Below, in pieces: positions 31,529 to 32,493 of a stretch of DNA of 64,000 bases. This stretch comes from Escherichia coli (GTDB lineage: Bacteria; Pseudomonadota; Gammaproteobacteria; Enterobacterales; Enterobacteriaceae). Under the pieces are notes generated by a model that saw only the letters and a list, made by a program, of their open reading frames with translations, was not told the DNA's origin and searched no databases. Where the stretch lies: the NCBI RefSeq assembly GCF_024502345.1, contig NZ_JALDNN010000001.1; one strand, given 5' to 3'. Each line of letters starts with the position of its first letter. Positions within the stretch are counted from its first letter, which is position 1. The position numbers were made by a program, and so were the translations under genes.

Positions 31529-32428
31529 TTAACGCGCCGCTGGACTAAAAAGCGCAGAATAATCCGTATTGCAGATTCGCTGTACCGCCGGGTGCTGAAT
31601 CATCCGCTCAGCAAAAATAGCATGGTACTCTTCCATCACATTCTCGACGCGACCAATTTCTACGACAGTTTTATCGGCATAAAAGTCATATGCATAAAGC
31701 GTTGGGGCAACGAAGATTGCATTGTGCATCGCACCAAAAGCTTTCATCAACGCGGCATCATCAAACTCGCCGAGGATTTCTACGTTTAATCCCTGGGAGT
31801 TAAACCAGTTAAGCAATTTGCGCCCTAACATTGAACGTCGCCCAGGAATCAAAAGTCGCCGTTCTTCCAGACAAGCCGGGAACGGTTTTTCTGGTGGTGG
31901 ATTTGTACACCAGAAACTCACGCCACATTCGCCAATTCTCACGGAGAACAGGCCTTCCTGCTGCGTAGAGTCTATCGGACAGTCAGAAATGATCATATCC
32001 AGTTTATGCTGACTTAATTGCTCCAGCAGCATTTCGTGGGTGGATTCGAAGCAGCGAAGATGAATGGGCTCGCCTTCTACCACTGCGGCGTTAAGTACGC
32101 TACTGACCAGGCGTTTGGAAAGTGCATCAGCCACGCCAACGTCAAACAATAAATTGGATTCTTTGCGATAGTTCACAATATCCAGCATTTCCTGGCTTAA
32201 GGTGAACATTTTATCGGCATAGCGATAGACCAGCTCTCCCAGCTCGCTGGGTTCGAGACCACGTCCCTTGCGCTTAAATAATTTGCCTTGCAGGCGCTCT
32301 TCCAGAGCCCGGATCTGTCCGGTAATGGTTTGTGGAGTTAAATAAAGCGCCTCCGCTGCGCCAACCACGGAACCTTCTTTATAGACATGCCAGAAGTAAT
32401 ACAAGTGGTTGTAATTGATATGAGACAT
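31529..32428 (-). CDS. nhaR: LysR-type transcriptional activator of nhaA (about 299-301 aa)
   Basis: Strong match to NhaR; start uncertain: first in-frame ATG at 32428, TTG at 32452 heads the track ORF. Confidence 0.9.
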
Positions 32429-32493
32429 GCTCGTTTCTCTCCCTGATAACAATGAAAAGGGAGCCGTTTATGGCTCCCCGGTAAACCGTCCTG

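Follow-up and report, generated by a model that had tools for sequence, protein, structure and literature searches.

The stretch of Escherichia coli DNA analysed here (64,000 nucleotides of contig NZ_JALDNN010000001.1, assembly GCF_024502345.1; 'the window' in what follows) contains the nhaAR operon. The layout is the one also seen in K-12 and other E. coli: nhaR lies directly 3' of nhaA on the same strand, with a 65-bp spacer between the two genes. The features of this spacer and of the nhaR start region are listed in Table 1. The minus-strand sequence across the start region is ttttcaTTGttatcagggagagaaACGagcATGtctcatatcaat. Read in the nhaR frame, it gives TTG (32452) TTA TCA GGG AGA GAA ACG AGC ATG (32428) TCT CAT ATC AAT, with GGCTCCCTTTTCA immediately 5' of the TTG and an in-frame TAA stop codon six codons 5' of it. 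Mechanical ORF listing returns a frame of 307 amino acids opening at the TTG (31529..32452, minus strand). The original prediction, which concerned the choice of start codon for nhaR, had placed a TTG at 32452, the first ATG of the frame at 32428 and an ACG two codons upstream of that ATG; all these coordinates and codons are exact.

Table 1. Features of the nhaAR junction (window positions)
Feature	Position	Strand	Remarks
nhaA	32494..33660	-	Na+/H+ antiporter; GTG start; upstream gene of the nhaAR operon
Intrinsic-terminator-like hairpin	32458..32479	-	GGGGAGCC-ATAAAC-GGCTCCCT followed by a T-rich tail; 3' of nhaA and directly 5' of the nhaR ribosome-binding site
TTG	32450..32452	-	Opens the mechanical ORF; start-type codon, not a plausible start
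Shine-Dalgarno (SD) element AGGGAG	32439..32444	-	GGGAG 10 nt before ATG 32428 and 4 nt before the ACG
ACG codon	32432..32434	-	Two codons 5' of the nhaR ATG; equivalent of the annotated K-12 MG1655 start (18715)
AGC codon	32429..32431	-	Between the ACG and the ATG
ATG	32426..32428	-	Likeliest NhaR initiation codon (MSHINYNHL..., 299 aa)
nhaR CDS	31529..32428	-	299 aa plus stop; LysR-type activator

In K-12 MG1655 (NC_000913.3) the same site is gggagagaaATGagcATGtctcat, and reads GAA ATG AGC ATG. The curated K-12 coding sequence of nhaR (b0020, NP_414561.1; 18715..19620) starts at the first of these two ATGs and encodes 301 amino acids beginning with MSMSHIN, which is the K-12 N-terminus that the original prediction had given. 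The two strains differ here by a single base, a T>C transition at window position 32433 when read along the minus strand; the plus strand has a G there, against an A in the nearest complete genome. The claim that the annotated K-12 start codon is mutated in this strain is therefore borne out: K-12 has an ATG where the window has an ACG, and the alignment that had been proposed as a check returned ATG-AGC-ATG for K-12 rather than a shared ACG.

In other respects the locus resembles that of K-12, where nhaR encodes a LysR-type activator of nhaA: the gene is alike, and so is the order of nhaA, terminator hairpin, SD and nhaR. The window NhaR matches residues 3-301 of the K-12 protein throughout, save at position 298 (A here, V in K-12). 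The K-12 record has 301 amino acids, whereas in the window strain, with an ACG at the K-12 start codon, a canonical start gives only the 299-residue form. The neighbouring NhaA shows three residue differences from K-12 (window residue first: M27/I, V202/A and A330/V), and the last nhaA codon before the stop presents a synonymous GTG/GTT difference.

Which codon, then, starts NhaR in this strain? Four independent lines of evidence favour ATG 32428, namely annotation practice, the family model, comparative sequence and experiment, and we infer that this codon is probably the start in use. As to annotation, PGAP places nhaR at the second ATG (900 bp, 299 amino acids) in all four of the other E. 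coli records that we inspected, each of which retains the first ATG. The window protein is identical to the RefSeq/PGAP NhaR WP_001300855.1 (299 amino acids; NCBIfam NF008284) and has the same start codon; nor does it differ from the annotated NhaR of the nearest complete genome. The one distinction is that the inspected genomes with WP_001300855.1 have retained the in-frame ATG located two codons upstream, and the window has not.

The family model agrees with this placement. NCBIfam NF008284, the NhaR equivalog of 299 positions, scores 603.2 bits against a curated cut-off of 219 bits, and its positions 1-297 align to residues 9-305 of the 307-residue ORF, position 1 being the Met of MSHIN. 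The protein is also recognised as a LysR-type regulator, with matches to HTH_1 (PF00126; 63 bits, residues 15-73 of the 307-residue ORF) and LysR_substrate (PF03466; 39.8 bits, residues 105-293). HTH_1 begins six residues past the Met of MSHIN, and neither the two-residue nor the eight-residue N-terminal extension falls within any domain.

For the comparative evidence we assembled 80 Enterobacteriaceae loci from GTDB species representatives. These were anchored by tblastn with the 299-residue protein as query, a choice that still leaves the start codon at the anchored position as an independent observation. The codon of the Met in MSH is a start codon in all 80 loci (ATG in 78, GTG in two). 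An ATG two codons upstream occurs in only ten, which comprise Escherichia species, two Salmonella and two Citrobacter; the remaining 70 have no upstream start codon and present GAG, AGA, CAG, GAA or other codons at this position. One locus has a TGA at the codon directly before the start. Judging from these sequences, the upstream ATG is confined to the Escherichia/Salmonella lineage. Most of the 80 loci keep the motif CAGGGAG 5' of nhaR. In Enterobacter species the sequence is GGGAGAGAA-GAC-GCG-ATG: the 10-nt spacing of the window is found there without an alternative start, which argues that this spacing is workable.

The two loci with a GTG at the conserved MSH start (at about locus position 1501) are those of Salmonella enterica subsp. 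arizonae and Citrobacter sp. 18056. The former retains the upstream ATG (ATG AGC GTG), which is perhaps the better start in that lineage; the latter lacks it (GAA AAC GTG). Two further loci carry unexpected labels. Contig CASFSC010000151.1 (5.5 kb), from a bin named 'uncultured Alistipes sp.', has the nhaR of E. coli without a single difference, and its upstream region is of E. coli type; it almost certainly comes from E. coli and was wrongly placed in a Bacteroidota metagenome-assembled genome. The nhaR of a locus labelled Chryseobacterium sp. 18061 is an Enterobacteriaceae gene as well.

The experimental evidence comes from initiation profiling in K-12. Using ribosome profiling under tetracycline inhibition (TetRP), Nakahigashi et al. 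(2016; PMC4909307, Table S2, row 134) obtained signals of 154.6, 174.0 and 153.2 at the downstream ATG of nhaR (18721, +6) and of 32.5, 0 and 0 at the annotated start (18715), so that the upstream ATG gave a signal in one of three samples. They list nhaR among the genes with close alternative starts, in class '4. multiple', and remark 'our data was major', the +6 ATG being the major site, the annotated one the minor site and the protein beginning with MSHINYNHL; the authors themselves note the limited resolution of the method between very close codons. The upstream ATG may serve as a minor start in K-12, but is not the main one. The same authors knock out candidate start codons in engineered reporters by changing the central T to C (PMC4909307), the very base change that is found here as a natural allele of a wild strain. 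In E. coli reporters, codons of the group to which ACG belongs start translation at about 0.1-1% of the AUG level (bioRxiv 10.1101/063800). We saw no reporter test of nhaR itself in PMC4909307, where the gene was found only in the supplementary files. The main text of the Ribo-RET study of Meydan et al. does not mention nhaR, and the reviews and modelling papers citing Pannuri 2012 gave no detail on its start codon.

Taken with these data, the most plausible account is a simple one, and we regard it as very probable. The T>C transition at 32433 falls in the spacer between the nhaR SD and the start codon and turns an in-frame upstream ATG into ACG, and NhaR would be translated from ATG 32428 with the AGGGAG element 10 nt 5' of it, yielding the ordinary 299-residue protein. 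Since the equivalent of ATG 32428 is already the principal start in K-12, the strain would lose at most a minor 301-residue isoform, and the lost residues would be an N-terminal Met-Ser outside the HTH domain. The phenotypic effect is probably negligible. The original prediction had supposed that initiation moved two codons downstream as one outcome of the mutation. This part is not supported, as ATG 32428 was the conserved and mainly used start all along (PGAP, 80 of 80 species, TetRP in K-12). Nor is nhaR a dual-start gene in the window: K-12 has both ATGs, whereas here the upstream codon is ACG and one canonical start is left behind the SD. The gene shows no sign of start-codon loss or pseudogenisation either, with the conserved ATG and the SD intact and a 299-residue product that is the common NhaR of E. 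coli.

That the curated K-12 start of nhaR departs from the RefSeq and experimental ones is already known. The curated position (18715) is at odds with RefSeq/PGAP, the family model, conservation in Enterobacteriaceae and initiation profiling, all of which support the ATG located 6 bp further 3'. Trust in the K-12 record would lead a reader or a gene-calling program to flag, wrongly, a loss of the nhaR start in the present strain. The biological weight of the change is small, with normal NhaR almost certainly being made. The strain nevertheless offers a natural ATG-to-ACG allele at the upstream codon that could be used to test what this ATG contributes.

How rare is this allele? We searched 5,426 complete E. 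coli genomes by megablast with 30-mers placed such that no 28-base word misses the variable position. The ACG version was found in none of the 5,426, the ATG version, which served as positive control, in 5,410, and a version with ATA at the upstream codon again in none. GTG at this codon was found in a single complete genome, that of strain 600029 (NZ_CM128582.1, 3298708..3298737). With a 191-bp query spanning the site, matches were obtained in 5,425 of the 5,426 genomes, none of them 100% identical. The picture is the same in metagenome contigs, where an exact 32-mer of the ACG allele had no match, while the pattern with the codon masked as NNN found 74 contigs, each of them with ATG. ATG is also what representatives of phylogroup A/K-12 and O157:H7, a B2 strain and the closest genome carry. 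The T>C change at 32433 is a real and rare SNP, and probably a near-neutral one.

The near-invariance of the upstream ATG weighs against a neutral reading. It gives some weight to the idea that this codon is a functionally important start, or a contributor to tandem initiation, in E. coli and Salmonella. On this reading its loss would lower NhaR synthesis or remove a needed 301-residue isoform, altering regulation of nhaA, pgaABCD and osmC. The upstream ATG is close to fixation in E. coli (5,410 of the 5,426 genomes and all 74 contigs) and is present in Salmonella too, and the curated K-12 annotation uses it. Near-fixation could mean that the codon has some selective value, or just that sequence of 30-mer length around a ribosome-binding site evolves slowly. 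Against an important role of the upstream codon, 70 of the 80 related loci have no upstream start whatever, and the two residues that it would add precede the HTH domain. GGGAG, moreover, ends only 4 nt before it, a spacing shorter than the usual optimum between SD and start codon. The profiling data of PMC4909307 speak on both sides, with a minor signal at 18715 in one replicate and the class 'multiple', but with the major signal at the downstream ATG. We consider an important upstream start unlikely. In a related form, the tandem ATG-AGC-ATG would be kept in E. coli and Salmonella for a minor 301-residue isoform or for tuning of initiation and of CsrA repression, the present strain being a natural knock-out; this too strikes us as improbable. 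Were tandem starts to matter, the strain would be expected to show an altered dosage of NhaR and changes in Na+/pH regulation and in PGA-biofilm regulation.

The stretch from 32434 to 32416 (minus strand) has a further property. In the K-12 allele it reads AUGAG-CAUGU-CUCAU, predicted to fold into a hairpin of 5 bp whose loop holds the second AUG, and the U>C change breaks one of its pairs. Within the 80-locus set, the hairpin is not conserved beyond the Escherichia and Salmonella sequences. The SNP could accordingly be imagined to act through RNA structure or CsrA binding instead of start choice, opening the small AUGAG/CUCAU hairpin and slightly raising nhaR translation. CsrA is described as a repressor of nhaR translation in the literature that cites Pannuri 2012. 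GGA motifs of the kind bound by CsrA are present in the nhaR SD and in the 5' arm of the terminator, and are candidate sites. From the GGA motif of the SD to the SNP, on its 3' side, the distance is 7 nt, which would put the SNP outside the CsrA consensus, usually of 12 nt, and CsrA binding would then be unaffected. As for folding, the predicted minimum free energy of the region from -60 to +40 goes from -25.9 kcal/mol with the K-12 allele to -23.8 kcal/mol in the window, and the predicted mean unpaired probability of the stretch from SD to start rises from 0.39 to 0.51. These figures point in the direction of easier initiation, but the energies differ little, and the hairpin is not found in other genera. 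A small effect of the SNP at the RNA level is possible on these predictions; that the SNP acts in this way, rather than through the choice of start codon, seems very unlikely to us.

An equally poor candidate is an artefact, that is, a C at 32433 arising from a sequencing or assembly error or from a mutation acquired in the laboratory. None of the 5,426 complete genomes and none of the 74 metagenome contigs shares the allele, and the position is isolated, the next differences from the closest complete genome (NZ_CP069692.1) being at 32339 and 32701. Over 24 kb, the window is 99.65% identical to that genome, with 83 differences that are clustered, mostly transitions and often spaced by a multiple of three, and include a single indel. 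The 82 others resemble natural divergence, and substitution errors are uncommon in finished assemblies. We hold an error or laboratory mutation to be highly improbable.

The weakest alternative, also raised in the original prediction, is a move of initiation to TTG 32452, giving a 307-residue NhaR with the extension MLSGRETS; no start-type codon of the ORF comes before this one, but it has no SD (the best anti-SD duplex in the 20 nt upstream reaches -1.7 kcal/mol, against -8.2 kcal/mol for AGGGAG at 32444-32439), lies within the T-rich tail TTTCATTGTT of the terminator-like hairpin of nhaA (32479-32458), is not conserved, two other Escherichia species representatives (one of them E. albertii) having TCT or TTC in its place, has no 307-residue product on record in the public gene-call collection and lies in an extension that the family model NF008284 does not reach, so that we rejected it as next to impossible.

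We also asked whether the wider window might belong to a Shigella-like decaying genome, and rejected this context: the gene layout is that of an ordinary E. coli and divergence from the nearest genome looks normal. A single IS4-like element is present in the annotated central third of the window. It carries a transposase of the IS421/IS186 type (34470..35588, plus strand) between mokC/hokC and dnaJ, and is shared with the closest complete genome. We take K-12 insL1 to lie on the nhaA strand, in which case the window transposase would appear to have, relative to nhaA, the orientation opposite to that of IS186A. The interval between rpsT and nhaR, where K-12 has IS1A, contains on the plus strand espX1, a fimbrial usher ORF truncated at the N-terminus (29373..30518) and another ORF that is fimbrial-like (30531..31490). 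The espX1-like ORF (27511..28932, plus strand) is uninterrupted here, with 473 amino acids, and is annotated as frameshifted in NZ_CP069692.1; the difference between the two is a 1-bp indel at window position 27655.
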